Assembly (NCBI GenBank): GCA_963814585.1
Contig: CAWFDF010000003.1
Coordinates: forward strand, 192,001-256,000
DNA: 64,000 bases
Direction: 5' to 3'
Origin: an uncultured delta proteobacterium
GTDB taxonomy: Bacteria > Myxococcota > Myxococcia > Myxococcales > Anaeromyxobacteraceae
Part shown: one piece after another, positions 39,701 through 63,671 of the stretch
Position numbering within the stretch: the stretch's first letter is position 1
How the letters are laid out: every line of letters begins with the position of its first letter
Position numbers and translations under genes: made by a program
Notes under the pieces: generated by a model
The model's input: only the letters and a program-made list of their open reading frames with translations
Told to the model about the DNA's origin: nothing
Databases searched by the model: none

Positions 39701-39730
39701 TGGACAATTCCAGCAAAAGCGTACCAGAAT
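39701..39730 (+). promoter_or_regulatory. Putative promoter for the iorA operon
   Basis: TGGACA, an 18-nt spacer, then CAGAAT, in an AT-enriched patch about 30 nt upstream of the iorA ATG. Confidence 0.4.
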
Positions 39731-39760
39731 GCCTGCTATTCCGGATCGGGAGCCGACGTG

Positions 39761-43303: not shown

Positions 43304-43729
43304 ATGGAAGTCGCGCAGGTCTCGGTATTCCTGGAGAACCGGTCGGGTGGGCTCGTCGAGGTCGTCGACGTGCTGGCCAAGAACGGCGTCGACATGAAGG
43401 CGCTCTCGCTCGCCGACATGGCCGACTTCGGCATCCTCCGGCTCATCGTCGACGACCCGGAGGAGACCCGGCGCATCCTCAAGGAGGCCGGCTTCACCGT
43501 GGACAAGACGCGGGTGGTGGCCGTCCAGGTGCCGGATCGGCCGGGCGGGCTGAGCGAGACGCTCCACGCCCTCCGCCGCAACAACATCAACGTCGAGTAC
43601 ATGTACTCGGCGGCCCGGCGCCAGGGAGAGAGCGCCATCATCATCTTCCGCTTCGACGAGATCGGGCGCGCCCTCGACGCCCTGCGTGGCGCCGGCGTCA
43701 CGGTGCTCGATCGCCTCGAGCCGCTCTAG
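43304..43729 (+). CDS. ACT-domain protein
   Basis: Motifs QVSVFLENRSG, DFGILRLIV, DRPGGL and INVEYMY. Confidence 0.9.
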   Translation: MEVAQVSVFLENRSGGLVEVVDVLAKNGVDMKALSLADMADFGILRLIVDDPEETRRILKEAGFTVDKTRVVAVQVPDRPGGLSETLHALRRNNINVEYMYSAARRQGESAIIIFRFDEIGRALDALRGAGVTVLDRLEPL

Positions 43730-43753
43730 CGATCGCGGCCGACGACCTCCCCG

Positions 43754-44632: not shown

Positions 44633-44639
44633 GGGAGCC

Positions 44640-45722: not shown

Positions 45723-46486
45723 CGCCCTTCCTCGAGGTGGGCGGGGTCTCCAAGCGCTTCGGCGGCGTCCAGGCCGTCAGCAGCGTGAGCTTCCAGCTGC
45801 GCCAGGGGATGATCAAGGCGGTCATCGGCCCCAACGGCGCGGGCAAGACCACGCTCTTCAACATGGTCTCGGGCTTCTCGTCGCCCGACCGCGGCTCCAT
45901 CGCGTTCGGCGGCCGCCCCATCCACGGCCTCCTTCCGCACCAGGTCGCCGGCCACGGGATCTCCCGGACCTTCCAGAACATCAGGCTCTTCGAGCACCTG
46001 TCGGCGCTGGAGAACGTCATGGTGGGCCGCCACCGGCGCGCCCGGGCCGGCTTCCTGGCCGGCATGCTCGACCTGGGCTGGGCCCGGCGCGAGGCGGACG
46101 CGGTGCGGGGCCACGCCCTGGAGACGATGGCCTTCCTCGGAATCGAGGCGCTCGCCGATGCCGAGGCGACCAGCCTCGCCTACGGGCAGCAGCGCGCCGT
46201 GGAGCTGGCCCGGGCCCTCGCCTCCGACCCGCTGCTGGTGCTCCTCGACGAGCCCGCCGCCGGCCTCAACATGCGGGAGACCCGGGACCTGGCGGGGCTC
46301 ATCACCCGCATCCGCGACCGGGGCATCACCGTCCTGCTGGTCGAGCACGACATGTCGCTGGTCATGGAGATCTGCGACGAGGTGCTGGTCCTGAGCTACG
46401 GTGAGAAGATCGCGGAGGCCGATCCCGCCACCGTGCAGCGCGACCAGAAGGTGGTGAAGGTCTACCTGGGTGAAGAGGAATGCTGA
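45719..46486 (+). CDS. ABC transporter ATP-binding protein (LivG-like)
   Basis: Motifs GPNGAGKTT, RTFQN, LAYGQQR, LLDEPAAG and VEHDM. Confidence 0.92.
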   Translation: MTPFLEVGGVSKRFGGVQAVSSVSFQLRQGMIKAVIGPNGAGKTTLFNMVSGFSSPDRGSIAFGGRPIHGLLPHQVAGHGISRTFQNIRLFEHLSALENVMVGRHRRARAGFLAGMLDLGWARREADAVRGHALETMAFLGIEALADAEATSLAYGQQRAVELARALASDPLLVLLDEPAAGLNMRETRDLAGLITRIRDRGITVLLVEHDMSLVMEICDEVLVLSYGEKIAEADPATVQRDQKVVKVYLGEEEC

Positions 46487-47226
46487 CCATCCGCACACTC
46501 GACGTGGCGTACGGCGCGGTCACCGTGCTCCGCGGCGTCTCCCTGCACGTCCGGGAGGGGGAGGTGGTGGCGATCGTCGGCGCCAACGGGGCCGGCAAGA
46601 CCACGCTCCTCAAGGCCGTGACCGGCCTGGTCCGTCCCCAGCGCGGCGACATCCGCCTCCGCGGCCAGTCGATCCTGGAGGCCGGCACCGGCCGCATCGT
46701 CGCCAGCGGGTGCTCCCTGGTGCCGGAGGGGCGCCAGATCTTCGGCGACCTGTCGGTCCGGGACAACCTGCTGCTCGGCGCCTACGTCCAGTTCCGGCGC
46801 GGCAAGGCCGGCGAGGTCGACGCCGACCTGGCGCGGGTGATGGGGATGTTCCCCATCCTCGAGACGCGGGCCGACCAGCTGGGCGGGACCCTCTCCGGTG
46901 GCGAGCAGCAGATGCTGGCCATCGGGCGGGCCCTCATGGCCCGGCCCACCCTGCTCATGCTCGACGAGCCGTCGATGGGGCTCGCGCCCCTGGTGGTGAA
47001 GGAGATCTTCGAGGTCATCTCCCGGATCAGCCGGGCCGGGTGCACCGTGCTCCTGGTCGAGCAGAACGCCCGGGGCGCCCTCAAGATCGCCAACCGCGGC
47101 TACGTGCTGGAGACCGGTCGCATCGTCCTGGAAGGATCGGCCGAGGACCTGCTCGCCAGCCGGGAGATGCAGCGCGCCTACCTGGGCCGGGACGTCCACT
47201 CGGAGTCAGAGAGGATCACCACATGA
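46480..47226 (+). CDS. ABC transporter ATP-binding protein (LivF-like)
   Basis: Motifs GANGAGKTT, VPEGRQIF, LSGGEQQMLAIGRALM, LDEPSMGLAP and VEQNA. Confidence 0.92.
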   Translation: MLTIRTLDVAYGAVTVLRGVSLHVREGEVVAIVGANGAGKTTLLKAVTGLVRPQRGDIRLRGQSILEAGTGRIVASGCSLVPEGRQIFGDLSVRDNLLLGAYVQFRRGKAGEVDADLARVMGMFPILETRADQLGGTLSGGEQQMLAIGRALMARPTLLMLDEPSMGLAPLVVKEIFEVISRISRAGCTVLLVEQNARGALKIANRGYVLETGRIVLEGSAEDLLASREMQRAYLGRDVHSESERITT

Positions 47227-48542
47227 CCGCCACCTTGACGCCGGCCGGCTTCTGGCAGCCGGACGAAGAGTGCATGCACCGCGAGGACCTCGGGCAGCTC
47301 CAGCTGGAGCGGCTCCAGGCGACGCTGAGCCGGGTGGCGCGCAGCGTCCCGTTCTACCGGTCGGCCTTCGACGCCATCCGCTTCGACCCGGACGACCTCC
47401 GGTCCCTCGACGACCTGCGGCGCCTCCCCTTCACCACCAAGGCCGACCTGGCCGAGGCCTACCCGTACGGCTTCCTGGCGGTGCCGCTGCGGGAGGTGGT
47501 CCGCCTCCACGGCACCGGCGGCTCGGGGAGCTCCGGCATCGTCATGGGGTACACCCGCAACGACATCAAGACCTGGGCCAACCTCAGCGCCCGGAACCTG
47601 GTGGCCGAGGGGGTGACCAAGGACGACGTCCTGCAGATCACCTTCGACTACGGCCTCTTCACCGGCGCCTTCGGCGTCCACTTCGGGGCCGAGCGGCTCG
47701 GCGCCTCGGTGATCCCCATCTCGAGCGGCAACACCAAGCGCCAGATCAAGATCATGGTGGACTACAAGACCACCGCCCTGGTCTCGACGCCCAGCTACGC
47801 GCTCCACCTCATCGAGGCGATGCGGGCCGCCAACCTCAGCACCAACGCGCTGTCGCTGCGGCGGGTCCTGGTGGGGGGCGAGCCCTTCCAGGAGGAGACG
47901 CGGCGGCAGATCGAGGAGGCCCTCCACGTCACCGTCACCGACAACTACGCGGTGAGCGAGCTGCTCGGGCCGGGCGTCGCCTCCGAGTGCCTCGAGCGCA
48001 ACGGCCTCCACCTCAACGAGGACCACTTCATCCCCGAGATCGTCGAGCCCGGGACCTTGAAGCCCGTGCCGCCGGGCGCCCAGGGGGAGCTGGTGCTCAC
48101 CTCGCTCACCAAGGAGGCCTTCCCGCTCATCCGCTTTCGCACCCGGGATCTCACCAGCCTGGACACGGCGCCGTGCCCGTGCGGACGGACCTCGGCGCGG
48201 ATCACGCGGATGGAGGCCCGCACCGACGACATGCTCATCATCAAGGGCGTGAACGTCTTCCCCTCCCAGGTCGAGGCGGTGCTCCGCGCCGTGGACCAGT
48301 CCGCGCCCCGTTACCAGCTGGTCATCGAGCGGAGGGAGGCCCTCGACGTGGCCACCGTGCTGGTCGAGGTGTCGCAGTCGGTGTTCTTCGACGAGATGCG
48401 GAGGCAGGCCGGCTACCGCGACCTCCTCCGGCACCGCCTGGCGTCGGACCTCGGCGTCAGCTTCGACGTGAAGCTGGTGGAGAAGAGCACCATGGACGGC
48501 GTCGCCGCCAAGGGGAAGGTCGTCGACCTGCGGAGGCGGTGA
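47223..48542 (+). CDS. Second phenylacetate-CoA ligase-like protein (divergent)
   Basis: Motifs [22 protein letters not shown] and [17 protein letters not shown]. The P-loop reads HGTGGSGSS instead of HASSGTTG. Confidence 0.85.
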   Translation: MTATLTPAGFWQPDEECMHREDLGQLQLERLQATLSRVARSVPFYRSAFDAIRFDPDDLRSLDDLRRLPFTTKADLAEAYPYGFLAVPLREVVRLHGTGGSGSSGIVMGYTRNDIKTWANLSARNLVAEGVTKDDVLQITFDYGLFTGAFGVHFGAERLGASVIPISSGNTKRQIKIMVDYKTTALVSTPSYALHLIEAMRAANLSTNALSLRRVLVGGEPFQEETRRQIEEALHVTVTDNYAVSELLGPGVASECLERNGLHLNEDHFIPEIVEPGTLKPVPPGAQGELVLTSLTKEAFPLIRFRTRDLTSLDTAPCPCGRTSARITRMEARTDDMLIIKGVNVFPSQVEAVLRAVDQSAPRYQLVIERREALDVATVLVEVSQSVFFDEMRRQAGYRDLLRHRLASDLGVSFDVKLVEKSTMDGVAAKGKVVDLRRR

Positions 48543-48548
48543 CCGGGT

Positions 48549-49259
48549 CTAGACATACTGCCCGGCGTCGACGCGGATCACCTCGCCGGTGACCATCCGG
48601 GCGGCGTCGGACAGCAGGAAGAGCACCGCCGCGGCCACGTCCTCCACCTCCGGGAGGCGCTTCAGCAGGGTCTCGTCGAGGGCCCGCTGCCGGTGCTCCT
48701 CGGCCAGGGCCAGGGTCATCTCGGTGAGGACCATCCCGGGGGCGACGGCGTTCACCGTGATCCCCCTGGGGCCCAGCTCGCGGGCGGCCGTCTTGGTGAG
48801 CCCGACCAGCCCGGCCTTCGAGGCGCTGTAGTTCGCCTGGCCGAACTTGCCCCGCAGCCCGTTGATGGAGACGACGTTGACGACCCGGCCGTACCCCGCC
48901 GCCACCATGCCCGGGGCCACCGCCCGCAGGACGTGGAAGGCGCCGGTGAGGTTCACGCCGATCACCGAGTCCCACTCCTCGTCGCTCATCTTGAGGAGGC
49001 TGCGATCCCGGGTGATCCCGGCGTTGTTGACGAGGAGGAGCGGCGGGCGCGGCAGCGCCCCGACCGCCGCCGTCACCGCCCCGCCGTCGGTGATGTCCAC
49101 GGCGTGGAAGTGGATCCCGTCGCCGCCGGCCCCGGGCTCCCGGTCGAGGACGTGGACCTCGGCGCCGAGCCCGGCCAGCCGCCCGGCGATGCCGCGGCCG
49201 ATGCCGCGGGCGCCGCCGGTGACCAGGGCGCAGCGGCCGTCGAACCGACCCGTGGCCAT
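48549..49259 (-). CDS. SDR oxidoreductase (FabG/PhaB-like; candidate 3-hydroxyacyl-CoA dehydrogenase)
   Basis: Motifs TGGARGIG, NNAGITRD, YSASK and NAVAPG. Confidence 0.88.
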   Translation of the reverse strand: MATGRFDGRCALVTGGARGIGRGIAGRLAGLGAEVHVLDREPGAGGDGIHFHAVDITDGGAVTAAVGALPRPPLLLVNNAGITRDRSLLKMSDEEWDSVIGVNLTGAFHVLRAVAPGMVAAGYGRVVNVVSINGLRGKFGQANYSASKAGLVGLTKTAARELGPRGITVNAVAPGMVLTEMTLALAEEHRQRALDETLLKRLPEVEDVAAAVLFLLSDAARMVTGEVIRVDAGQYV

Positions 49260-49273
49260 GGGCGCCGGCCCGG

Positions 49274-50212
49274 TCACGTGACCGGCCTCGGGACGGCGGG
49301 CCCCGCGATGGGCCGGGTGAAGGCGATCCGCTGCGAGTGGGTGAAGCCGGTCCGCGACAGGAAGGCGAGGAGCGGGATCTCCCGCCAGTCCGCCTCGGTG
49401 ACCACCTGCTCGGCCCGCAGCCCCTCCAGGTTGAGGAGGAGCTGCTCGAGCAGGGCCCGGCCGACGCCCTCGCCGCGGTCGTCCGGATCCACCGCGATGG
49501 TGTCGAGGACGGCGGTCGGCTCGGTGCGGCCGAACTCGCCGAACTCGACCCGCGCCATGAGGAACCCGGTCAGCCGGGTGCCCTGCTCCGCCACCAGCCC
49601 CATGCGGATGGCGGAGCCGCGCAGCGCCTCGGCCACCATGCGGGCGTAGTAGGCGGAGCGATCGCGGCGGGTGACCTTGCGGTCGAGCCGGATGATGGCC
49701 CTCAGGTCCCTCTCGGTCATCGATCGGACCGGGAGCTCCACGCCCGCGGTCTCCTCGTCGGGGAGCCGGTCGAGGGAGCGCTCCAGGACCAGCCGCGGCG
49801 CCAGGCGGAAGCCGGCGCGGGCGAAGAAGGTGGCCAGCCCGTGGTCCGTCCACTCCACCTGGGTCCTCAGCTCGCGGGCACCGCGAGTCGAGAGCTCCCC
49901 CTCCAGGGCCGCCAGCACCTCGGTGGCCACCCCCTGGTGGAGCGCCCGGGTGTCGACCCCGACGGCGTCGAGGACGCCCACCGGCGCCTGCCCGCCGAAC
50001 TCGCCGTCGAGGACGCGGGCGAAGGCGAACCCCGCCGGCCGGCCGCCTCGCTCCGCCACCACCGCCACGCCGCCACCCGGCTCCTCCGCCAGCCCCCGGA
50101 TCCGTCTGGCGTAGAACTCGCTCCGGGCGCGCCCGGACCGCTCCCGGTCGATGGCCACCACCGCGTCGAGGTCGGCGGCGACGAGGGGACGCGTCGTCGG
50201 GCGATCGGTCAT
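49274..50212 (-). CDS. Tandem GNAT acetyltransferase (two BadL-like domains)
   Basis: Two repeats of DL.A...D...R..YY / GF..ARV..GEFG / LD...VD....GV. Directly downstream of bcrD. Confidence 0.8.
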   Translation of the reverse strand: MTDRPTTRPLVAADLDAVVAIDRERSGRARSEFYARRIRGLAEEPGGGVAVVAERGGRPAGFAFARVLDGEFGGQAPVGVLDAVGVDTRALHQGVATEVLAALEGELSTRGARELRTQVEWTDHGLATFFARAGFRLAPRLVLERSLDRLPDEETAGVELPVRSMTERDLRAIIRLDRKVTRRDRSAYYARMVAEALRGSAIRMGLVAEQGTRLTGFLMARVEFGEFGRTEPTAVLDTIAVDPDDRGEGVGRALLEQLLLNLEGLRAEQVVTEADWREIPLLAFLSRTGFTHSQRIAFTRPIAGPAVPRPVT

Positions 50213-50224: not shown

Positions 50225-51088
50225 CTAGGTGGCCAGCGCGCCGGCCGGGCGCGCCGAGAGCTTGTGGTGACGGAAGGCGCCCCACAGCGCGGCGCCGATG
50301 GCCCCGGCGTAGATGGCGTCGGGGTGGCTCCTCACCTGGACCGGGAGCTGGGCCTCGGCGCCCGCCTCCTGGATGGCGGCCACCAGCCCGCCGTCGAGCC
50401 CCAGGCCGCCGGTGACCAGGACCGTCCCCTCCAGCGCGCCGATCCCCCGGACCAGCGCGGCCAGGCGCTGGGCCATGGAGACGTGGATCCCCTTGAGGAT
50501 GTTGGCCGCCGAGATGCCGCGCGAGACCATGTTGATGACGTCGGTCTCGGCCAGCACCGCGCAGATCGAGGAGACCTTCTCCGGCGCCGTCCCCTGCAGC
50601 GAGAGGGTGCCGATCTCGTCCTGGGCGATCCCGAGGTAGCGGGCGATGTTCTCCAGGAACTGCCCGGAGCCCGAGGCGCACTGGCTGGTCATCTTGTAGG
50701 AGAGCACCTTGCCGCGGGCGTCGGTGCGGATGGCCCGCCCGTGGAGCGCCCCGACGTCGAGGACCAGGCGGGTCGAGGGGTCGAGGTGGATGGCCCCGCG
50801 AGCGTGGGTGGTCATCGAGTAGAAGTGGCCGGTCGCGAAGGAGATGCTCTCGCCATCGCCGGTGGTGGCGACGTAGGCGAGGTCGGCGCGGCGGAGGCCG
50901 GCCTCGGCCAGGACCGCGTCGAAGGCCTCCCCGGCCAGTGCGTAGGGATCGCGCTGCCGGATCCGATCGACGCGCCGTCCCACCCAGCGCGACGTCCCGC
51001 CGCTGGTCTCGAAGAGCGCCACCTTGACGCACCCGGTGCCGACGTCGATGCCCGCGGTGATGGTCATCTGCGCTCCCTGGCCGCTCAT
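50225..51088 (-). CDS. bcrD: Benzoyl-CoA reductase subunit D (ATPase module)
   Basis: Motifs [52 protein letters not shown] and [15 protein letters not shown]. Start is at 51088 or 51067. Confidence 0.93.
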
Positions 51089-52416
51089 GCCGTGGCGCCG
51101 CGCCGGGCGAAGGCCGCCGCCCCGAGCGCGCCGGTGTAGATCGAGTCGGGGTTGATGTTGATGGTGACGTCGCCGTAGTTCTCCTTCACCAGGTTGCGGA
51201 GCTCCCGCACCGCCGCCTCGTTCTTGGCGACGCCGCCGGTGAAGGTGAACTGGTCGCGGATCCCGCCGGAGCGGGAGATGATCGACATGGCCCTGAGGAT
51301 GATGGCGCGGTGGAGGCCGGCCAGGATGTCCTCGCGCTTGTCGCCCAGCGCCAGCCGGTCGCGGAGCTCGGCGCCGGCGAAGACCGTGCAGGTCGAGTTG
51401 ATGCGCAGCGTCTTGGTGGCCTGGAGCGCCATGGGGCCGAGCTCGTGGAGCCCCATCTGCATCTCGTCGGCCACGTACCCCAGGTAGCGCCCGGTGCCGG
51501 CCGCGCAGCGGTCGTTCATCTGGAAGTTCTCGACGATGCCGTTCTCGTCGACCTGGATGGCCTTGGTGTCCTGGCCGCCGATGTCGAGGACGGTGCGCGT
51601 CCCCTCGTGCATCAGGTGGGCGCCGAGCCCGTGGCAGAGGATCTCGGAGCGGATGTGCTCCTTGGGGAACGGGAGGCGGACCCGCCCGTACCCGGTCCCC
51701 ACCACGTAGGCCTCCTCGAGCGGGATCTCCAGCGCCGCCCGCACCGGCCGGATCACCTCGTCGGCGCCGAGCGGTGGCCCGGCCGCCTCCCCGCCGGCGG
51801 TGCGCGTGGCGAGGACGCTGTCGAGCGCCTCGAGGAACTTCCCCTCCATCCCGTCCTCGCCCTTGCGGTTCTCCACCTCGATGATCGACTTGTCGTAGAC
51901 GTTGAGCAGCAGGTCGAACGAGAGGCCCGACGCCTTGCAGACCGGATCGGCGGCCGTCATGAACCCCGACCCGGCCAGGTCCCGGAAGAAGTCGGAGCGG
52001 CGGCGGGCCCCGGGCGCGAACAGCGCCGTCGACTCCTCGCGAAGCCTTCGGAACACCTCCCCGAGCGCCTCGGCCAGCGCGCGCTCCTGCCCGGCGAAGC
52101 GCAGGCCCCCGCTGTGGCGCAGGCAGGTCTCCTCCAGGTCGCGGAGCTGGGACCGGAACTGCACCAGCCTGAAGTGGCGCTCGAGGTCGACGAGGAGCCC
52201 GTCGACCCGGCCGGCCAGGGCCGGGGCGGCGGAGAGGGCGCGACGGAAGAGCGTGAAGCGGGCGGCGACGAAGGCCTCCTGCTTGGAGACCGCCGCGGCG
52301 GTGTCGTAGTTGGAGCGGGAGTTGGTGATGCCCCGCCCCAGCACCCTGGCGTCCTCGTCGACGACCACCGACTTGGTGGTCGTCGAGCCGAGATCGATGC
52401 CGATGTAGCACTTCAT
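51085..52416 (-). CDS. bcrA: Benzoyl-CoA reductase subunit A (ATPase module)
   Basis: Motifs [53 protein letters not shown] and NSTCTVFA. Long Thauera-type form. Confidence 0.93.
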
Positions 52417-52436
52417 GGAGGGCCTCCACCCATCGG

Positions 52437-53756
52437 TCAGGCCGCGGACGGCGCGCTGCCGCGCTTCTGGTCGATCATCTGGAAGTAGCTCTCGAGCCGG
52501 TTCTTCACGTTGGCCGCCGAGAAGTAGCGCGGGTCGACCAGGTCGGTCTCGATGAAGGCGGCCGGCTTCCCGGTGCGCTTCTCGACCTCGCGCATGATCA
52601 TGAGCTGGCCGGCCGAGAAGCTGTTGCAGCTCTTGATGGAGTTGATGAGGAGCCCGTCGGCCTGGTACTCGTCCATGTACTTCTCGAGCAGGTCGATGCG
52701 CTGCGGCAGGTTGCGGTTGGTGTAGACCCCCATGCAGTAGTCGGCCAGCGACTCGAGGGGATGATCCGGATCGTGGCGGAAGCCGAGGTCGTAGGTGCCG
52801 CCGACCTTGGTGTAGCTCGAAGCCACCACCACCGCGCCGTCGTCGTAGAACATCTTCCAGAACTCGCGGAAGCTGGTCCAGTTGGGCGGCCCCTCCACCA
52901 CCAGCCGGTAGCGCTGGCTCTTCATGTCGCCCTCCGGCGTGATGGGCCCCAGCCCCAGCCGGATCCGCTCCTCGATCTCCGCGCGCAGGAGCCGGTAGTA
53001 CTCGGTGGCGTCGGGGGTGCCACGGAAGGCCGTGAAGATGGGGCCGATGTAGTAGACGCCGCCGAAGTAGGCGTCGATGGGCGCCGGCGTGGTCTTGGCG
53101 CTCTCCAGGACCCAGACCAGGTCGTCCTCGGCGCGCGCCGACTCCCGCAGGTACTCGCGGAGCCGGTCGATGTCGAACTTCACGCCGGAGACCCGCTCCA
53201 GGGCCGGGATGACCTCCTGGCGGAGCTGCTTGACGATGTAGTCCCGCATGTTCCTCGTCGTCTCGCCGTCCCCCTGGTAGGGAACGTGGAGCATGACGGT
53301 CGGGCACTTGTACTCCTCGCGGAGGAGCTCGAACCACTTCATGAAGGTGAAGCAGCCGGTGTAGGAGAGCAGCAGCAGGTCGGGGCGCGGCAGCGGCTTC
53401 CCGTTGGGCGAGACGTTGCCCCTGGCGATCATCCCCAGGTCGGCCTTCACGTAGGTGCAGACGTCCTCGGAGTGGCCGCGCTTCTCCGCCTCGGCGATGT
53501 AGTCGCCGGACACCTTTCGCATCCCGTTCTGGATGGCGTTGATCTCCGGGAGGTTGTTGAGCATGTCGAAGCACATGATCAGCTCGTTGAGGTTGCCCGG
53601 GACGAAGGTCGAGGCCACCTTGCGGCCGTGCTCGGCGGTGCTGGTGAGGAGATCGTAGTTCCGCGCGATCATCTCCTTCTGCTTCACCATCGACGCCTCC
53701 TTCACGACCTCCCGGGCCGGCGCCTGCGGGCGGTGCGACGAGGTCCTGGTCGTCAT
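52437..53756 (-). CDS. bcrB: Benzoyl-CoA reductase subunit B
   Basis: Motifs [47 protein letters not shown] and [11 protein letters not shown]. Confidence 0.93.
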
Positions 53757-54955
53757 GGCGTGCTCCAGAGCTTGATCGAGTCGGCGAAGGTGCCGGCCTG
53801 CTCCCGCACCGGCTGCATCTGCGCGGAGTTCTCGGCGTACTTGAAGCCGATGTGCGGGACGTCGACGCGGTCGAGGACCGCCTCGAGCATGGGCCGCTCG
53901 AGGAGCGCCGGGTCGCAGAAGCTCGGGGCGGCGAAGATGACCCCCTCGGCGGCGTTCCCCTTCACCGCGTCGAGGATGTAGCGCCCCTTGAGCTCCTGGC
54001 GCGGCTGGTACTTGGCCCCGGTCTCGGTCGAGCCGCTGAGGAACGCCGTCGCCAGGGCGGCGATGGGGTCGCCGCTGGTGGGGAGGTCCTCGAGCAGCCA
54101 GCGGTTCACCAGCATGAAGTCGTCGTCGACGATGTAGCAGCCCGACATCTCGATGGCCTTGATGAGGCTGAGCGGCGGCTGCTCGCAAAAGACGCCGCTC
54201 AGGACGATCCGGCAGTTGTCGCGGCGCGGGCGATCCTCGGCCCGGGCGGCGGCCAGGTAGTCGGCCAGCAGCTGGTTGTGCTCCTCGACGGGGAGCACCA
54301 TCCCGGCCCGCAGCACCAGGTACAGCTCGGAGGCCGGCGCCCGCCAGGGCGCCTCGGCGCGGAAGGCGTAGAGCTCGCGGACCAGCCGCCGGTTCTGGTT
54401 GTAGAGGGCGAACGAGGCCCGCAGCGCGTCGTCGCTGACGGGCCGGCCGGCCAGCCGGGCCAGGCCCTCGCGGAGCTCCTGGAGCTCCTGGCGGTAGAAG
54501 GTCCCGCCCACCTCCGGGTCGAAGTTCTGGGGGACGTCGAAGTACCGGACGTAGACCTTGGGGAAGAGGATCTTCCAGATGCCGGAGAGGTTGCGGATGA
54601 CGTCGCAGATGGAGGGGAAGAGGAACCCGTCGACGAAGTCGAGCCGGCCGGTGATCCCGAGGTCGAGGGTCGAGCGCGGGATGCGGCAGATGTAGCTCTG
54701 GTAGTAGGCGTCGCCGTGGATGACCTCGAGGTTCTCGCCGGCCCCCAGGATCCCCAGCGGGAGCATCCCGGCCGCGTGGATCAGCTCCAGGGGCACGTAG
54801 ATGGGCATGTAGGCGACGACCTTCCGTCCCGGGGCGGCGGCCTTCCACTGGCGCGCCGCGCCGAAGGAGATGTCGTCGAAGAGGGCCTGGCACCGCGCCA
54901 CCAGGGCCGCGGTCGTGGTGGTCGCCGGGGCGGCGCCGGTCGTGGTGGTCGCCAT
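53753..54955 (-). CDS. bcrC: Benzoyl-CoA reductase subunit C
   Basis: Motifs [46 protein letters not shown] and [25 protein letters not shown]. Confidence 0.93.
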
Positions 54956-54957
54956 GT

Positions 54958-55782
54958 TCAGCGGTCCTCCCAGCGGGCCGGGCGCTTCTCGAGGAAGGCG
55001 GTGAGCCCCTCCACCGGGTCGGCTCGCCTCATGAGCTCGTCGAGGTAGATGGTCTCCAGGGCCGCCAGCTTGGCGCGGACCCGCTCGACGAGCCCCATCC
55101 GGGAGGCGCGGGCGGCGAAGCCGAGCGAGACGGCGGAGCGGCCGGCCAGGTGGGCGTCGAACCAGGCGAGCGCGGCGGCCTCCGGGTCGGCGGCCACCGC
55201 GCAGGCCAGGCCGAGGCGGTGCGCCTCGGCCCCGTCGATGGCGCGGCCGGAGAGGAGGAGGTCGTCGGCCGCGGCCGGGCCGATCCGCTCGGGGAGCAGG
55301 CAGGAGGCCGCCGGGGCGAAGACCCCGAGGACGATCTCGGGCTGGCCCAGCTTCGCCTCCGGGGCGGTGAAGAGGAGGTGTGCGGCGCTGGCCAGCTCCA
55401 GCCCGCCGCCGAGGCACTGGCCCCTCACCGCCACCAGGATGGGGACCGGGAGCTCGAGCATGCGGAGGAGGAGCGCGTGGAAGCCACGCAGCATGGCCGC
55501 GCAGGTCGCCGGGAGGTGCTCCTCGACGCTGGCGCCGAAGCTGAAGTGCGGGCCCTCGGCGTCGAGGAGGATGGCCCGCAGTGCGGGCTGGCCGTCGGCC
55601 CGCAGTGCGGGCTGGCCGTCTCCCCGCCGTGCTGGCGCCTCCGCGGCGGCGCCGGCGAAGGCGGCGTCGAGGGCCGCCACCATGGCCGCGTCGAGGACGT
55701 TGGCCTTGGGCCGGTCGAGCCGGATCCGGAGGAGCCGGCCCTCGCGCTCGCGCCAGGCGCGCACCGGAGCGGCGGCGCCCAT
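54958..55782 (-). CDS. dch: Cyclohexa-1,5-diene-1-carbonyl-CoA hydratase
   Basis: Motifs RPKANVLD, GPHFSFGASVEEH, GQCLGGGLE and GQPEIVLGVFAPAAS. Located in the bcr operon. Confidence 0.9.
   Translation of the reverse strand: MGAAAPVRAWREREGRLLRIRLDRPKANVLDAAMVAALDAAFAGAAAEAPARRGDGQPALRADGQPALRAILLDAEGPHFSFGASVEEHLPATCAAMLRGFHALLLRMLELPVPILVAVRGQCLGGGLELASAAHLLFTAPEAKLGQPEIVLGVFAPAASCLLPERIGPAAADDLLLSGRAIDGAEAHRLGLACAVAADPEAAALAWFDAHLAGRSAVSLGFAARASRMGLVERVRAKLAALETIYLDELMRRADPVEGLTAFLEKRPARWEDR
55573..55620. repeat. Perfect 24-bp tandem duplication inside dch
   Basis: GGCCCGCAGTGCGGGCTGGCCGTC occurs twice, encoding DGQPALRA twice. Each unit contains the inverted repeat GCCCGCA-G-TGCGGGC. 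Confidence 0.9.
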
Positions 55783-56927
55783 CACCGCCCTCCGCCCGAC
55801 CTGGCGGCGGGGAGCAGGCTCTCGACCAGCTCGGGGCTCCAGGGCGTGGCGCGGGCCAGGGCCTGCCGGAGGGCCACGAAGTCGGCCTCGCGGTCGTCCT
55901 TGGTCCCCTCGTTGAAGGCCCGGAAGCCGGTGCGCGCCTCGGTCATCATGTTGAGGGCCAGCCAGGCACGCGAGTTCTCCTTGTTGGCGGTCCAGGCCTG
56001 CAGCTTCGGCTTGCGCAGCTCCTCGATGGTCTTGGTGGTGCAGTCGGGGAAGGTGAGGAGCAGCTTGGCGCAGAGCTGCTCGACCCGCTCGTCGAGCATG
56101 GCCAGGTCCACGGTGCCGCGCTTCATGAGCTCCTTGCCCTCGGCCAGGGCCGTTCCGGTCTTGGGCTCCCCGTGGAGGTAGCGGCCGTACTCGTCGAGGA
56201 GGCGATCGGTCCAGACCAGCGGGTTGGCGACGTACTTCCCGTCGACCCGGAGGGCCGGGACCACGTCGCTGATCATCCCTTCCCGGTAGGCGCGGTGGGC
56301 CGACCACGGCTCGCAGAGCAGGCCGGTCTCCATGGCCCGCTCGCCGCCCAGCAGGACCGGGAGGAAGTCGGTGGCCCCGCCGATGGGCGCCGACCCGTGC
56401 TTCGGCCCGGCCTGCCCGAAGCGGGCCAGGTCCTGGGCGACGGAGAAGTCGCAGGCCATCCCGATCTCCTGCCCGCCGCCGATGCGCATGCCGTTGACGC
56501 GGCAGATCACCGGCTTGTCGCAGCCGAGGATGGCGCTCACCATGTCGTTGAAGAGCCGCATGTACTGCCGGTACTCCTGGGGATTCCCGGCGTAGTACTC
56601 GGCGTACTCCTTGGTGTTGCCGCCGGTGCAGAAGGCCTTGTCCCCGGCGCCGGTGAACACCACCGACACCACGTCACGCGCGCTGGAGGCCGCGCCGAAG
56701 GCCAGGATGACCGCCTTCACCATGTCGGTGGTGTAGGAGTTGTACTGGGCCTGGTTGTCGAGGACGATCCAGGCGTTGAAGAGCCCCGCCACCTCGGTCC
56801 CGTCGGGGCGGCGCGCCGGGCGCTTCTCGAAGCGCACGCCCACGCCGGCCGGCATGGGCGCCAGCTGGTGATCCCTGGCCTGGCTGGGCGCCGTCGATCG
56901 AATCACCTCTTCCGTCCTCTTCGACAT
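55782..56927 (-). CDS. oah: 6-oxocyclohex-1-ene-1-carbonyl-CoA hydrolase (ring opening)
   Basis: Motifs QYNSYTT, FCTGGNTKEYAEYYAG, NGMRIGGGQEIGMACD, GQAGPKHGSAP.GGATDFL and NKENSRAWLALNM. Confidence 0.95.
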   Translation of the reverse strand: MSKRTEEVIRSTAPSQARDHQLAPMPAGVGVRFEKRPARRPDGTEVAGLFNAWIVLDNQAQYNSYTTDMVKAVILAFGAASSARDVVSVVFTGAGDKAFCTGGNTKEYAEYYAGNPQEYRQYMRLFNDMVSAILGCDKPVICRVNGMRIGGGQEIGMACDFSVAQDLARFGQAGPKHGSAPIGGATDFLPVLLGGERAMETGLLCEPWSAHRAYREGMISDVVPALRVDGKYVANPLVWTDRLLDEYGRYLHGEPKTGTALAEGKELMKRGTVDLAMLDERVEQLCAKLLLTFPDCTTKTIEELRKPKLQAWTANKENSRAWLALNMMTEARTGFRAFNEGTKDDREADFVALRQALARATPWSPELVESLLPAARSGGGR

Positions 56928-56944
56928 GTCGGGTCTCCGCGGGT

Positions 56945-58003
56945 TCAGGGGATGAGGATGGCGCGGCGGGAGAGCTTCTTCTGGTGGGCCAGGCCGAAGA
57001 CCGCGTTGGCCTCGGCCAGGGGATGGCGCTCGACGTACGGGGCGAGCTGGACCTTCCCGTCGAGGACCAGGTCGAGGGCGGCCGGGTAGAGCTCCGGCGC
57101 GCAGCCCCAGTTCCCCAGCGCCCGGGCGTGGAAGGCCATCAGGTTGGAGAGCCGCAGCTCGACCTTGTCCATGGTGAAGCCGACCACCGCCAGGGTGGCC
57201 CCGTGGACCAGCAGGCCCCAGGCCGTGAGCTGCCCGGCGGCGGTCCCGGAGCACTCGAAGATGGCCCACTCCCGCGCCGAGGCCCCGCTCTTCCTGGCGT
57301 GCTCCCCGATCTCCTTCTTGAGCGCTTTGGGATCGAGCAGCCTCGGGTTGAACCCGCGGGCCACCCCCCGGGACTCGAGCTGGTCGAGCCTGGCCTGGTC
57401 GACGTCGAGGGCCACCACCGTGGCCCCGAAGGCCCTGGCGATCTGCGCCGCGTAGGAGCCGACCCCGCCCACGCCGATGACGACGGCCAGGGTGCCGGCG
57501 GCGACGCCCGCCTGGACCACCGCCTGGTACGGGGTGGTCACCGCGTCGGCGACCACCGAGACGTCGGCCAGGGTCAGCCCGGCCCCGGCCAGCCGGGTCT
57601 CGTCGACGGCGCAGAGGCCGCGGGCGGGAACGGCGACGTGGGTGGCGAAGCCGCCGTGGATGTCGTTCCCGGGCATCTGCTGGGCGGGGCAGATGGTCCC
57701 CTTGCCACGCCGGCAGGCGTCGCACTGGCCGCACGGGATGACCGCCGGGACGATGACGGCGCGCCCCAGCCACGGCTCGGCGCCGGGCCCGGCGGCCGCC
57801 ACCCGGCCGCTGATCTCGTGGCCGAGCGCCAGCGGCAGCGCGTGGTTGGTCCTGACCCCGTCGTAGTAGAATCCGAGGTCGGTATGGCAGACCCCGCAGC
57901 CGGCGACCTCGACCCAGACGCCACCAGCCGGCGGCGCCTCCAGCGCCATCGGCTCCATGGCCAGCGGCTCGCCCGCCGCCCTCATCACCCAGCGATGCGC
58001 CAT
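56945..58003 (-). CDS. had: 6-hydroxycyclohex-1-ene-1-carbonyl-CoA dehydrogenase (Zn-dependent MDR)
   Basis: Motifs [51 protein letters not shown] and [10 protein letters not shown]...GNWGC. Confidence 0.93.
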
Positions 58004-58069: not shown

Positions 58070-58127
58070 TTGACTGGATCGATCTCAAAGTGGTAAACTA
58101 GTACCAGAATCCAACGTTCGCCGTCAA
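58070..58127. promoter_or_regulatory. Dyad-symmetric divergent promoter/operator between had and gcdH
   Basis: The + strand reads TTGACT-N18-TAAACT and the - strand reads TTGACG-N18-TACTAG, both with TGn before the -10. The palindrome TGGTA-N6-TACCA (58091-58106) lies on the same symmetry axis. Confidence 0.65.
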
Positions 58128-58181: not shown

Positions 58182-59366
58182 GTGAGTGCCAGCGATCCCG
58201 TGTTCCGCTGGGAGGACGCGCTGCGGCTCGAGGACGAGCTCACCACCGAGGAGCGGCTGGTGCGCGACAGCGCCCGGGACTACTGCCGCGACCGGCTCAT
58301 GCCGCGGGTGCTCGAGGCCAACCGGCAGGAGCGCTTCGATCGCGAGATCCTCCGCGAGCTCGGCGAGCTCGGCATGCTCGGGCCGACCATCGAGGGGTAC
58401 GGCTGCGCCGGGGCCTCCCACGTGGCCTATGGCCTGGTGGCCCGGGAGGTGGAGCGGGTCGACTCCGGCTACCGCTCCGCCATGAGCGTCCAGTCCAGCC
58501 TGGTCATGCACCCCATCCACGCCTACGGCACCGAGGCGCAGCGGCAGAGGTACCTGCCGCCGCTGGCCCGCGGCGAGCTGGTCGGCTGCTTCGGCCTCAC
58601 CGAGCCCGACGCCGGGTCGGACCCGGGGAGCATGCGGAGCCGGGCCCGGAAGGTCGGCGACGGCTGGGTGCTCACCGGCACCAAGATGTGGATCACCAAC
58701 TCGCCCATCGCCGACGTCTTCATCGTCTGGGCCAAGGACGACGAGGGGGTGGTCCGCGGCTTCATCCTCGAGAAGGGGATGAAGGGGCTCTCGGCGCCCA
58801 CCATCGAGGGCAAGTTCAGCCTGCGAGCCTCGGTCACCGGCGAGATCGTCATGGACGAGGTGGCGGTCCCGGAGGCCCAGCGGCTCCCTGGCGCCTCCGG
58901 CCTGAAGGGGCCGTTCGGCTGCCTCAACAAGGCCCGCTACGGCATCGCCTGGGGTGCCCTGGGCGCCGCCGAGTTCTGCTGGCACGCCGCCCGGGCCTAC
59001 ACCCTGGACCGCAAGCAGTTCGGGCGGCCGCTGGCCGCCACCCAGCTGGTCCAGCTCAAGCTGGCCGACATGCAGACCGAGATCACCCTGGGGCTGCAGG
59101 CCTGCCTCCGCGTCGGGCGGCTCATGGACCGCCACGAGGCGACGCCGGAGATGGTCTCGCTCATCAAGCGCAACAGCGCCGGCAAGGCCCTGGCCATCGC
59201 CCGCCTCGCCCGGGACATGCACGGCGGCAACGGCATCTCCGACGAGTTCCACGTCATCCGCCACCTCATGAACCTGGAGTCGGTGAACACCTACGAGGGC
59301 ACCCACGACATCCACGCCCTCGTCCTGGGCCGGGCCCAGACCGGCATCCAGGCCTTCTCGACCTGA
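58182..59366 (+). CDS. gcdH: Glutaryl-CoA dehydrogenase (decarboxylating type)
   Basis: Motifs [48 protein letters not shown] and [19 protein letters not shown]. Confidence 0.93.
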
Positions 59367-59412: not shown

Positions 59413-60600
59413 ATGGCCGAAGCCTGGATCGTCGACGCCGTCCGCACGCCCATGGGGCGCTACGGCGGGGCGCTGGCCGGCGTCCGCCCCGACGACCTCG
59501 GCGCCGTGGTGCTCCGCGCCCTCCTCGCGAGGACCGGCGTCCCCGCGGCGGACGTCGAGGACGTCTACCTCGGCTGCGCCAACCAGGCCGGCGAGGACTG
59601 CCGCAACGTGGCCCGGATGAGCTCGCTCCTGGCCGGCTACCCCATCGAGTCCGGCGCCTGCACCGTGAACCGGCTCTGCGGGTCCGGGCTCGAGGCGGTC
59701 GCCGCCGCGGCGCGCGCCGTCATGGCCGGCGAGGCCCACGTCTACGTCGGGGGGGGCGTCGAGTCGATGTCGCGCGCGCCCTGGGCCATGGCCAAGCCCG
59801 ACCGGGCGCTCCCCCGCGGCAACGCCACGGCCCACGACACCGCGCTCGGCTGGCGCTTCACCAACCCGGCCCTCGAGGCGCTCGGCCACACCGACTCGCT
59901 GGGCCAGACGGCCGAGAACCTGGCGGCCGAGCTCGGCATCTCCCGGCAGGCCCAGGACGCCTACGCCCTCCGCAGCCACCAGAAGGCGGTGGCGGCGCAG
60001 GACGCCGGCCACTTCGCCGCCGAGCTGGTCGGCGTGAAGGTGGAGGGTGGCGAGGTGACCGCCGACGAGGGGCCGCGGCGCGACACCACGCTGGAGCGGC
60101 TGGCCCGGCTCTCCGCCGCCTTCAGGAAGGGCGGCACCGTGACCGCCGGCAACTCCAGCACCCTCAACGACGGCGCCGCCGCCGTGCTGGTGGTCTCGGC
60201 GGACTACGCCCGGGCCCACGGCCTCGAGCCGCTGGCGCGCATCCGCTCGATCGCCGTGGCCGGCGTCCCGCCTCGGACCATGGGGATCGGCCCGGTCCCG
60301 GCCACCAGGAAGGCGCTGGCGCGCGCCGGGCGAACCCTGGCGGAGCTCCACCGCATCGAGCTCAACGAGGCCTTCGCGGCGCAGTCGCTGGCCGTCCTGG
60401 CCGGCTGGGAGCTCGAGGCCGACGACCCGCGGGTCAACGCCAGCGGCGGGGCCATCGCGCTCGGCCACCCCCTCGGCTGCTCGGGGGCCCGGCTGCTGGC
60501 GACGCTGGTCCACGGCCTGGTGCGGACCGGCCAGGCGCTCGGCCTGGCGACGATGTGCATCGGCGTCGGGCAGGGCATCGCCATGGTGGTGGAGCGGTAG
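59413..60600 (+). CDS. Acetyl-CoA C-acyltransferase (thiolase, PcaF/PaaJ-like)
   Basis: Motifs [47 protein letters not shown] and MCIGVGQG. Confidence 0.92.
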   Translation: MAEAWIVDAVRTPMGRYGGALAGVRPDDLGAVVLRALLARTGVPAADVEDVYLGCANQAGEDCRNVARMSSLLAGYPIESGACTVNRLCGSGLEAVAAAARAVMAGEAHVYVGGGVESMSRAPWAMAKPDRALPRGNATAHDTALGWRFTNPALEALGHTDSLGQTAENLAAELGISRQAQDAYALRSHQKAVAAQDAGHFAAELVGVKVEGGEVTADEGPRRDTTLERLARLSAAFRKGGTVTAGNSSTLNDGAAAVLVVSADYARAHGLEPLARIRSIAVAGVPPRTMGIGPVPATRKALARAGRTLAELHRIELNEAFAAQSLAVLAGWELEADDPRVNASGGAIALGHPLGCSGARLLATLVHGLVRTGQALGLATMCIGVGQGIAMVVER

Positions 60601-60656: not shown

Positions 60657-61016
60657 CTAGTTGGGGGTCCAGACGCCGGCCGGCGGCTCGAGGCAGAAGG
60701 CCTCGGCGTCGGCGGCGACAATCGGAGCGTAGAAGCTGTAGACCTGCTCGGGGTTGGTGCCGGGCATCCTGCACCGCCCGACCCGGTTGGCGGTCGGGCA
60801 ACCCGATCCCGCGGTGCCGCCGGCCGTGGCGCACTCCGCGTTGAACGCCGAGGTGTCGGCCGCGGTCGGGGTCCCGGTGGCGGCGAGGCAGTACGCCTCG
60901 GCCGGGACGTTGCAGCTGAGGGTGACGGTGGCCGGGGCGGGGGGGTCGTCGCTGCCACCGCAGGCCGCGGCCAGGATGGCGAGCAAGCCAGCGGCGGCGA
61001 GGTTCTTGGCGTTCAT
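60657..61016 (-). CDS. Small Cys-rich lipoprotein
   Basis: MNAKNLAAAGLLAILAAAC lipobox with six further Cys. AAAGG upstream. Confidence 0.7.
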   Translation of the reverse strand: MNAKNLAAAGLLAILAAACGGSDDPPAPATVTLSCNVPAEAYCLAATGTPTAADTSAFNAECATAGGTAGSGCPTANRVGRCRMPGTNPEQVYSFYAPIVAADAEAFCLEPPAGVWTPN

Positions 61017-61197: not shown

Positions 61198-62592
61198 ATG
61201 CCCAGCCTCGCCGAGACCCTTCGCGCCGCCGGGATGGCGGCCACCGACGCCGGGCGCCCCGAGGCGCTGCGGCCCGCGCTGGGCCGTGATCTGCAGGCCG
61301 ACTGGGCGGTGGCCGGTCCGCACCTCCAGGCCTGCGTCGACCTGCTGCGTCAGCTGCCGGCCAGGCCCCGTCGCAGCCCGCCCGAGCAGGCGGCCGCCGC
61401 GGCGCTGCTGGAGGAGGGCCGCTCGGCCCGCGAGGCCCTGCTGCGGCGCCACGCCCCCGCCATCTACGCCCGGCTCACCGCCGGTCGAACCCGCCTGGTG
61501 CGCATGGTGGAGCTGGCCGAGGCGGCGGCCGCCGCCTTCCCGGGCCTGGTGCCGGACGCCGGGCAGGTGGCGTCCGAGCAGCACCACCCGCTGCCGGAGC
61601 AGGACGGCCTGCAAGTCGACCAGGGGATCTTCTTCGCGCACGTGCTCGCCAATCCGGCCTCGGGCCTGCACCTGCTCCAGGCCATGGGACAGGCCACCCC
61701 GGCGGCGCTGGAGCGGCTCCCCGCGCTGCGGGCCGCGGGACGGGTCGAGCTGCCCCAGGCCACGCTGGAGCGGGTCGGGGTGCGGGGGCACATCACCTTC
61801 CACAACCAGCCCTGGCTCAACGCCGAGGACGACGAGACCGAGGAGGCGCTGGAGACGCTGGTGGACCTGGTGCTGCTCGACGACGCCATCCAGGTGGGGG
61901 TGATGCGCGGCGCGCCCATGACCAAGGCGAAGTACGCCGGGCGCCGCGTCTTCGGCGCCGGCATCAACCTGACCCGGCTCTATCACGGCCAGATCTCGCT
62001 GGTGCGCTTCATGCTCCAGCGGGAGGCCGGCCCCCTCGCCAAGGTCTACCGCGGCCTGGCCCGCCCCGAGCCGGATCGGGCCGGCGACGACGATCGCACC
62101 GAGAAGCCCTTCATCGGAGCGGTCGACGCCTTCGCCATCGGCGGCCACTGCCAGCTGCTGCTGGTGCTGGACCGGGTCATCGCCCAGCGCGACGCCTACT
62201 TCAACCTGCCGGCCCGCAAGGAGGGCATCGTCCCCGGCCTGGCCAACCTCCGCCTGCCACGCTTCGTGGGCGAGCGGGCGGCGCGCCAGGGCATCTTCTT
62301 CGACCGCCCCTTCCAGGCCGACAGCCCGGAGGGCCGGCTGCTCTGCGACCAGGTGGTGGACGGGGACGCCGAGATGGAGGCGGCCGTCGCCACCGCCGCC
62401 GCCAATCTGCTCGGCGCCGGCACGACCAGCCTCACCGCCAACCGGCGCGCCCTCCGGGTCGGGGCCGAGCCGCTCGACCTCTTCCGCCGCTACCTGGCCA
62501 CCTACGCCCGCCAGCAGGCCCACTGCGTCTACAGCCCGGCCCTCATCGACAACCTGGTGCGCCACTGGAACGCCCAGCAGCGCGCCACCTGA
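61198..62592 (+). CDS. DpgC-like crotonase-superfamily protein (cofactor-independent arylacetyl-CoA 1,2-dioxygenase homologue)
   Basis: Long N-terminal extension with DQGIFF. Motifs LNAED, RVFGAGINL, ISLVRF..QRE.G, EKPFIGAVDAFAIGG.CQLLLVLD, LPARKEGIVPGLANLRL and ANRR match DpgC as I recall it. Confidence 0.8.
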   Translation: MPSLAETLRAAGMAATDAGRPEALRPALGRDLQADWAVAGPHLQACVDLLRQLPARPRRSPPEQAAAAALLEEGRSAREALLRRHAPAIYARLTAGRTRLVRMVELAEAAAAAFPGLVPDAGQVASEQHHPLPEQDGLQVDQGIFFAHVLANPASGLHLLQAMGQATPAALERLPALRAAGRVELPQATLERVGVRGHITFHNQPWLNAEDDETEEALETLVDLVLLDDAIQVGVMRGAPMTKAKYAGRRVFGAGINLTRLYHGQISLVRFMLQREAGPLAKVYRGLARPEPDRAGDDDRTEKPFIGAVDAFAIGGHCQLLLVLDRVIAQRDAYFNLPARKEGIVPGLANLRLPRFVGERAARQGIFFDRPFQADSPEGRLLCDQVVDGDAEMEAAVATAAANLLGAGTTSLTANRRALRVGAEPLDLFRRYLATYARQQAHCVYSPALIDNLVRHWNAQQRAT

Positions 62593-62739: not shown

Positions 62740-63189
62740 TCAAGCCGGCGTCTTGACCGGTCCCTGCCGCCCGCCTGCCGCGCGCCGCTCCTCGTCGACC
62801 AGCGCCAGCATGGTCGCCAGGGAGATCGAGCTCAGGGTGGCCCGGGCGATGTCGTCGATCTCGTCGAAGACCCGGTGCAGGGACCGGCCCTCGGCCGAGA
62901 GCCCCTCCGCGTCGCGCGCTCCCTCGCCGGCGCCGATGGGCTCGAAGAGCTCGATGACGTCGAGGAGCGTCACCCGCCGTGGGTTGCCGCGGAAGCGATA
63001 GCCCCCGCCGGCGCCCCGGAGCGCCTCGACCAGCCCGGCCCGACCGAGGACCCGCAGCACCTTGGAGAGGTGGTTCACCGAGATCCCGAAGCGGCTGGCG
63101 ATCTCGGCGGCGGCCAGCTGCCGGCGCGGGTCGGCGGCCAGCTGGAAGACGGCGAAGAGCGCGAGGCGGGTCGCCACCTGGACCCTCAT
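62740..63189 (-). CDS. Rrf2-family transcriptional regulator (BadM-like)
   Basis: Winged-helix pattern AEIA.RFGIS.NHLSKVL..L.RAGLV...RGAGGGY, TLLDVIELFE. No Cys, so no Fe-S ligands. Confidence 0.88.
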   Translation of the reverse strand: MRVQVATRLALFAVFQLAADPRRQLAAAEIASRFGISVNHLSKVLRVLGRAGLVEALRGAGGGYRFRGNPRRVTLLDVIELFEPIGAGEGARDAEGLSAEGRSLHRVFDEIDDIARATLSSISLATMLALVDEERRAAGGRQGPVKTPA

Positions 63190-63671
63190 GGCTCGAGCCT
63201 CTTCTCGAGCTGGATGAACGGGCCGGCCATCATGCCCTGGCTCCGGAAGAAGGACATGATGAGCCGGTCGTCCTTGGCGAGCATGGTGCGGACCTCCTTG
63301 ACGCCGGCCTTGCGGAAGCGCACGCACATCTCGTCGAAGAGCATGGTCCCCAGGCCGTGGAGGCGCGCCTCCGGGCTCACTCCGATGGCGAAGACCCAGC
63401 CGCTCGGCGGCGAGCCGAACTCCCAGGCGCGGACCTCGCCGACGATGAAGCCGAGCATCACGTCCTGCCGCTCGGCGACCAGGAAGAAGCGGTCCGGGCG
63501 GCGACCCACGTACCACTCGAAGCGGCTCTTCCAGTAGGCGGGCTTGGTGATGCCGGTGTCGGCGGCGTCGATGGCGACCACCGCGGCCAGGTCCGAGAGG
63601 TTGGCGGCGCGGATCCGGACGTCGCCGTGCCCGGCCCGGGACGCGCTGGTCTTCTGCTGCGAATTGGCCAC
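63186..63671 (-). CDS. GNAT acetyltransferase (BadL-like)
   Basis: Motifs KPAYW, GFIVGEVRAWEFGSPP.GWVFAI, RTMLAKD...MSFFRSQGMMAGPFIQLE. Stop overlaps the Rrf2 start. Confidence 0.82.
   Translation of the reverse strand: MANSQQKTSASRAGHGDVRIRAANLSDLAAVVAIDAADTGITKPAYWKSRFEWYVGRRPDRFFLVAERQDVMLGFIVGEVRAWEFGSPPSGWVFAIGVSPEARLHGLGTMLFDEMCVRFRKAGVKEVRTMLAKDDRLIMSFFRSQGMMAGPFIQLEKRLEP

Follow-up and report, generated by a model that had tools for sequence, protein, structure and literature searches.

A DpgC-like protein encoded in a benzoyl-CoA gene cluster of an uncultured member of the Anaeromyxobacteraceae, a putative catabolic and cofactor-free arylacetyl-CoA dioxygenase

Phenylacetate is a hub in the breakdown of phenylalanine, styrene and plant aromatics, and two bacterial routes for it are generally taught: in Paa the ring is epoxidized, and in Pad the alpha carbon is oxidized anaerobically with molybdenum. 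The former begins with PaaK, followed by the use of O2 on phenylacetyl-CoA by PaaABCE, and the latter (PadJ, PadBCD, PadEFGHI) passes, in the accessible part of the source, through phenylacetyl-CoA, phenylglyoxylate and benzoyl-CoA (PMC5109826). The closest described relatives of the protein reported here are biosynthetic: DpgC, the (3,5-dihydroxyphenyl)acetyl-CoA 1,2-dioxygenase (PDB 2NP9; NCBIfam NF042432), for which the accessible text gives a kcat of 0.15 per second (PMC4618494), and PglA, encoded in the pglA-E set for phenylglycine biosynthesis, whose oxidation of phenylacetyl-CoA is only "suggested" in the accessible text (PMC7089894).

We analyzed a stretch of 64,000 nucleotides (hereafter the window) from the genome of an uncultured member of the Anaeromyxobacteraceae (G000; 4.34 Mb, 73% GC, 18 contigs, 91.7% complete). 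It carries at 61198..62592 (+) a single intact open frame with normal codon bias, its ATG start preceded by a GGGGG stretch, which encodes a DpgC/PglA-family crotonase-fold protein of 464 aa that we propose, from its PDB and NCBIfam matches, residues and AlphaFold model, to be a (hydroxy)phenylacetyl-CoA 1,2-dioxygenase. The PDB match is DpgC itself (E 1e-95, residues 31-455), and the AlphaFold model (pLDDT 90.4), which shows the crotonase fold with its N-terminal helical extension at full length, superposes on DpgC with a TM of 0.84-0.85 at 45% identity, versus 0.47 or less on ordinary crotonases. With NF042432, the DpgC equivalog model, the protein scores 422.9 bits and stays below the cut-off of 530, while a dpgA-linked control reaches 717.9 and a PglA-type control 490 bits. 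By the criteria tested the protein lies outside the glycopeptide-type DpgC, but it would work like DpgC. Some relatives are named "thioesterase DpgC" in databases, which is an automatic label, and the "DPGC" in the accessible text of PMC10470551 was dismissed as the acronym of an unrelated cyclohydrolase.

The core active-site residues of DpgC are found again in this protein, and a Q/A pair occupies both crotonase catalytic glutamate positions, as in DpgC. E189, I235, L237, R254, E255, G296, Q299, P318-A319, E322 and I324 (DpgC numbering) are conserved, and we take them to have the roles assigned to them in DpgC, E189, R254 and E255 presumably being its hydroxyl-binding residues; E189, L237, R254, G296, Q299, P318, A319, E322 and I324 are invariant among the protein and all 80 related proteins. 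Compared with DpgC, the protein carries the exchanges F412Y, V425L, K428N, G297H, A298C and A320R. The first two separate the described types, since, among controls taken from plasmid records, F412/V425 stand in all four dpgA-linked proteins (L102, L137, L139, L140, each with dpgA-dpgB) and Y412/L425 in all four of the PglA type (L101, L103, L135, L136), which were assigned via their NRPS-pglA-E gene order and not via the S. pristinaespiralis sequence. Our protein lacks the DpgC-type F412 and V425 and has Y436 and L449 as the equivalents of Y412 and L425, found respectively in 79 and in all of the 80 relatives. His and Cys at 297/298, where DpgC has Gly at the former position, and Arg at 320 are specific to the clade. 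The O2-gate residues that the accessible part of PMC4618494 names for DpgC are altered as well (K428 to N, F432 to H, V429 to L, A112 to P), and the PglA types likewise differ at such residues. Three positions that seemed diagnostic with one DpgC control, namely K238, V429 and the one following F432, proved variable among four and were dropped.

In a FastTree phylogeny of 94 sequences, from which L022, L072, L097, L133, L134 and L104-L128 were omitted, three groups come apart: the DpgC types, the PglA types with a support of 1.0, and 86 others with a support of 0.886, among them the long-branch L138. The protein is like PglA in identity (~45%), length and Y412/L425, but it falls outside the PglA clade, in a 12-member subclade (support 1.0), and is a member of a large clade that is not biosynthetic; neither does it form an operon with NRPS, pglB/C, pglD or pglE, and its product is proposed to go to benzoyl-CoA, not to an amino acid. 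L138, from Tistrella mobilis, is a divergent DpgC-like gene located after genes for an adenylation-domain protein and an acyl-CoA dehydrogenase, and its protein has R320, Y412, L425 and N428 in common with the catabolic clade. The family is large: the genome scan yielded at least 588 relatives, the best 80 of which were retained as loci, 3691 of 8000 scored candidates match the query at E 1e-40, and 7790 of 8000 match an alphaproteobacterial member at E 1e-100. No named cultured strain occurs among the best 120 nearest alphaproteobacterial relatives.

The neighbors of these genes are catabolic. For the best 80 of the at least 588 relatives, 79 loci had a called gene, and a PaaK-like gene lies within 2.5 kb of it in 41 of them, directly adjacent in 34; of 25 additional loci, 15 also have PaaK within 1.5 kb. 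Other neighbors are another AMP-forming ligase (9 loci), a fused IOR (3) and a 2-oxoacid dehydrogenase E1-alpha subunit (4), and the adjacent gene is of one of four CoA-thioester-forming kinds in 46 of the 79 loci, while a CoA-thioester-forming neighbor is missing from 14 of the 59 loci that extend more than 2 kb to either side. One representative per cluster was typed, and PaaK, fused IOR, BoxB, BoxC, benzoylformate decarboxylase and PobA all exceed their cut-offs. According to their titles, the PaaK-linked loci come from Alpha- and Betaproteobacteria, Chloroflexota, Actinomycetota, Dormiibacterota and Kofleriaceae. A gene for benzoylformate decarboxylase comes at most two genes later in L020, L023, L025 and L026, box genes adjoin in L019, L096 and L162, and PobA-like genes are near in L025, L040, L053 and L062; no match to DpgA, DpgB, PglD or PglE was found at E 1e-20 in loci L016-L100. 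Four unrelated types of acyl-CoA-making enzymes on the substrate side and a benzoylformate-consuming enzyme on the product side bracket the predicted reaction. In ten loci of one alphaproteobacterial group (L044, L046, L047, L049, L052, L054, L057, L059, L063, L085), genes for an IPP isomerase, a small thioesterase-like protein and a MarR protein are nearby, along with CoA transferases and genes of the UbiD family and of UbiX-like type, which hints at one more pathway for aromatic acids.

Presence and absence across whole genomes point the same way. Searches were performed in 53 carriers; 50 of these come from the 80 loci and were selected for longer contigs and a variety of contexts, and the other three are G000, G013 and G024. 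None of the 53 has paaA (3 of 14 control genomes do), whereas boxB occurs in 35 and is missing from 18, and a fused IOR occurs in 34 and is missing from 19; MdlC exceeds its cut-off in seven carriers and in only five of the 19 without a fused IOR. The dpgA gene was found in none of 75 carriers and in both positive controls. As a background we drew 80 genomes evenly from the alphaproteobacterial family of G063. In these incomplete MAGs, with at most 19 candidates scored per genome in the carrier and PaaK searches, 22 genomes carry the DpgC-like gene and 28 carry paaA, and the two sets do not overlap at all (7.7 genomes expected). PaaK is encoded in all 28 paaA genomes, in 19 of the 22 carriers and in only 4 of the 30 genomes with neither, and two of the three PaaK-less carriers have another CoA ligase gene right behind the DpgC-like gene; boxB is present in 21 of the 22 carriers versus 29 of the 58 others (16 of the 28 paaA genomes and 13 of the 30 with neither). 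Fisher tests give p-values of 1e-5 and 9e-5 for these patterns, which overstate the significance because the genomes are kin. The original prediction of a catabolic role on PaaK-made arylacetyl-CoA, ending at benzoyl-CoA, is supported by these data. A general linkage to bcr did not hold: bcrB is present in 9 of the 53 carriers, that is in 7 of 8 from the query's own subclade and in 2 of 45 elsewhere, and the usual partner is Box.

At the locus itself the gene order is as had been claimed, a full-length DpgC-like gene between a gcdH-thiolase pair and two regulators. The pair consists of an acyl-CoA dehydrogenase which we take to be GcdH-like (58182..59366, +; no NCBIfam model above cut-off) and a thiolase (59413..60600, +) whose closest profile match, 3-oxoadipyl-CoA thiolase, remains under its cut-off, and the regulators are GNAT and Rrf2 genes (62740..63671, -; profile matches) convergent on the DpgC-like gene, for which the names BadL and BadM are presumed by analogy. 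Overlooked before was a gene for a Cys-rich protein of 119 aa with a lipoprotein-like N-terminus (60657..61016, -; no Pfam or NCBIfam match), which lies on the opposite strand between the thiolase and DpgC-like genes and is missing at the same site in locus L129 and in three congeners. The benzoyl-CoA gene set is complete, with bcrC, bcrB, bcrA and bcrD for a class I benzoyl-CoA reductase (50225..54955, -) and had, oah and dch for the ring enzymes of the pathway (54958..58003, -) all exceeding their cut-offs; genes for a tandem-GNAT protein and an SDR (48549..50212, -; profile matches) form the end of the bcr operon. On the plus strand, iorA and iorB (39758..41896), with three and one assembly indels, respectively, and under their equivalog cut-offs even when intact, are followed by PaaK-like ligase 1 (41940..43263; one assembly indel near 42128; below the PaaK cut-off), an ACT-domain protein and a livHMGF-type ABC transporter (43304..47226; profile matches), and PaaK-like ligase 2 (47223..48542), which with 453 bits does not reach the cut-off of 646. 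Both Ior subunits are short: IorA has 540-545 aa in congeners and extends only to position 558 of the 595 in the model, the C-terminal ferredoxin part apparently lacking, whereas IorB has 168-170 aa (for iorAB see also L142:11228-13350).

A sigma-70-like promoter followed by the motif GTACCAGAAT was recognized in the sequence at 58070..58110 (+). The motif occurs at window position 39721 before iorA, at 58101 before the gcdH-thiolase unit, and at G000:C3:259050 before an operon outside the window (ApbA-HGD operon); its 9-letter core has seven intergenic matches genome-wide, three of which precede operons of the aromatic cluster. The motif is a candidate for an operator or a promoter element and might serve the Rrf2 regulator. 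No shared motif was found directly upstream of the DpgC-like gene, nor any terminator-like site between 57900 and 63000, the latter saying little because the DNA has 73% GC. The ApbA-HGD operon lies just right of the window (L001:6997-19748) and is conserved, occurring in G001, G009, G012, L131 and L149; it encodes a fusion of a PanE/ApbA-like reductase with a 2-hydroxyacyl-CoA dehydratase subunit, along with two activases, another dehydratase subunit and a CoA ligase, and it also contains hcrCAB-like genes, whose products score under the Hcr cut-offs; opposite to it are genes for a hydratase/dehydrogenase and a thiolase. Together with IorAB and PaaK, this operon could provide an O2-independent route from phenylacetate or phenylpyruvate via phenyllactyl-CoA and cinnamoyl-CoA to benzoyl-CoA.

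Several of these genes appear broken in the assembly. Relative to a congener, iorA has three frame changes and iorB and paaK1 have one each; short-read contigs, from best-matching runs that may be the source sample, have one base fewer at each of the five sites, so that these frameshifts are assembly errors and a true pseudogenization of iorAB and paaK1 is ruled out. The essential murE is also broken into three pieces, and single-base indels are many across the assembly (murE, an hcrA-like gene, a thiolase gene; e.g., C3:277066-278489), so apparent pseudogenes or missing genes in this genome need care. With that proviso, the genome-wide search (91.7% complete) gave the following: PaaA, PaaC and DpgA have no orthologue, PadE has none above cut-off (best 46 bits versus 300), and a DmsC-type anchor, which we take PadD to be, was not found. 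The lack of dpgA and dpgB extends from the window to the genome, as DpgB, along with PglD, PglE, fused IOR, BoxB, PobA and a close MdlC, gave no genome match by tblastn; the sole type III PKS (34%) was rejected as DpgA with a score of 192 versus a cut-off of 425. A genome scan with PF00384 gave five loci, of which two matched no Pad model when profile-scanned, one is NarG and two were judged by gene context only. A cluster for a DMSO reductase family type II enzyme, with its alpha subunit split in the assembly, lies at G000:C16:39900-46200 (L151), and a VorB-type oxidoreductase is encoded on contig C12. NarG exceeds its cut-off and a ccoN-like gene (cbb3-type oxidase subunit) scores 511 versus 583, and the organism therefore probably meets O2.

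The DpgC-like gene is present in only 3 of 40 relatives. A fused IOR is found in 3 of 24 family members, exactly the three carriers (G013, G016, G024), where it is encoded directly upstream of the DpgC-like gene; boxB accompanies the two in all three genomes, and box genes adjoin in two. Among 12 congeners, five have bcrB, and none of these five has the DpgC-like gene, which speaks against a conserved part of the bcr cluster. Three inspected congeners keep the whole iorAB-paaK-liv-bcr-gcdH-HGD-hcr-like cluster in synteny, with the DpgC-like gene missing before Rrf2. An 89%-identical copy occupies the same site in L129, about 100 bp behind the thiolase gene, while in L131 and L132 (68-69%) the gene stands at a second site, directly before hcrCAB-like genes; the 7-kb contig of L130 (85% identical) has no bcr gene. 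Absence from syntenic congeners and two different sites within bcr clusters indicate an accessory gene that entered such clusters more than once, and the gene here represents an accessory insertion into an aromatic cluster of otherwise anaerobic character.

We consider it probable, from fold, residues and gene contexts, that the protein is a catabolic, metal- and cofactor-free arylacetyl-CoA 1,2-dioxygenase which replaces the Paa epoxidase and feeds benzoyl-CoA via phenylglyoxylate. PaaK, another AMP-forming ligase or a 2-oxoacid oxidoreductase would supply phenylacetyl-CoA, possibly also its 4-hydroxy form; the dioxygenase would form the thioester enolate and place O2 onto the alpha carbon, giving phenylglyoxylate and CoA; the carboxyl group would then be removed by a fused IOR, yielding benzoyl-CoA, or by benzoylformate decarboxylase, yielding benzaldehyde and then benzoate, and benzoyl-CoA would be degraded mostly by Box and, in the query's lineage, also by Bcr. 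In the source genome, where fused IOR, MdlC, Box and Pad were all not found, IorAB or the VorB-type oxidoreductase would be the candidates for the third step, and the DpgC-like enzyme would be an O2-dependent shortcut in an organism respiring nitrate and O2. In the IOR-dioxygenase-box operons one IOR may catalyze two steps, one on either side of the dioxygenase. Such a route would share the Pad intermediates, with one cofactor-free, O2-using protein in place of the membrane molybdoenzyme. Like Paa it would begin with PaaK and use O2 on phenylacetyl-CoA, but the enzyme standing in for PaaABCE would attack the alpha carbon of the side chain, not the ring, and by analogy to DpgC would require no NADPH, di-iron center or reductase. 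Against this reading stand the altered O2-gate residues, the His at 297, the loci without a CoA-thioester-forming neighbor and the carriers lacking boxB or fused IOR; unsubstituted phenylacetyl-CoA is also said to be a poor substrate for true DpgC.

How far the reaction is integrated into the local cluster is a separate matter. The original prediction had IorAB turn the arylglyoxylate into benzoyl-CoA for BcrCBAD in a micro-oxic pathway, the oxygenase step also shielding Bcr from O2. The fact that iorAB and the two paaK genes are intact apart from assembly errors, the motif shared by iorA and the gcdH-thiolase unit, the two positions of the gene in bcr clusters and the prevalence of bcrB in its own clade are in favor of this local route; yet three congeners without the gene have a complete iorAB-paaK-bcr set, so the retention of IorAB does not depend on the gene's product, and bcr is rare among other carriers and missing from the L130 contig. 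IorAB-type enzymes are moreover described, in the accessible part of PMC5109826, as converting arylpyruvates to arylacetyl-CoA, and would therefore sit upstream of the dioxygenase, the dedicated partner in the family being the fused IOR not found here. O2 scavenging is unsupported and unlikely to matter given the slow turnover of DpgC and the presence of a terminal oxidase subunit, and we regard the local route as a tentative possibility at best. Slightly less probable still, though compatible with the catabolic dioxygenase, is that its main substrate is a hydroxylated arylacetyl-CoA (e.g., 4-hydroxyphenylacetyl-CoA) feeding Hcr or PobA, as the presumed hydroxyl-binding role of E189, R254 and E255, the hcrCAB-like genes right behind the gene in L131 and L132 and the nearby PobA-like genes might suggest; the three residues are also found in PglA types, the hcr-like subunits stay under their cut-offs, and the exclusion of paaA and co-occurrence with boxB point to an unsubstituted ring. 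The gene might instead have come without its fused IOR and Box partners, as a stranded passenger whose product is a dead end or exported. Both partners accompany it in the three carriers of the wider family and were not found in the source genome, a gene on the opposite strand lies between it and the thiolase gene, and no shared motif directly precedes it; the intact frame, normal codon bias and conserved copy in L129 make this unlikely, and the source assembly is 8% incomplete.

Other readings concern the reaction itself. Activity as a thioesterase, hydratase or isomerase on arylacetyl-CoA would be in line with the crotonase fold, the altered O2 gate, the clade-specific H/C and R320 and some of the automatic database names, but with Q and A at both catalytic glutamate positions such a non-oxygenase is a poor fit; a plain thioesterase next to PaaK would run a futile cycle and leave the exclusion of paaA and the links to MdlC, IOR and Box unexplained. 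We find it highly improbable that the enzyme supplies arylglyoxylate for phenylglycine or for a quinone precursor of the 4-hydroxybenzoate type. DpgC and PglA are indeed biosynthetic, and UbiD-family, UbiX-like and IPP isomerase genes flank some alphaproteobacterial loci, yet DpgA, DpgB, PglD and PglE had no match in the loci searched or, beyond the type III PKS mentioned, in the source genome, and the neighbors are uptake and catabolic genes.

For the family as a whole, we lean towards a third general bacterial phenylacetate route beside Paa and Pad, which would consist of PaaK, the cofactor-free dioxygenase, a fused IOR or benzoylformate decarboxylase, and Box or Bcr, and which, if so, would be widespread among uncultured bacteria of soil and sediment from several phyla (the gene is in 22 of the 80 genomes from one alphaproteobacterial family). 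No description of a catabolic DpgC-like enzyme was found in the literature searched, most subscription papers lying outside its reach; within that literature the chemistry is already known (DpgC) or proposed (PglA), and neither a catabolic role nor a replacement of Paa was found. If true, a one-protein, cofactor-free oxygenase would link the Pad intermediates to Box or Bcr and account for the many genomes with paaK yet without paaABCE, and thousands of "DpgC" annotations now taken as antibiotic biosynthesis would need correction. The enzyme would also be a simple catalyst for phenylglyoxylate production and a model for cofactor-less O2 activation by a non-phenolic substrate.
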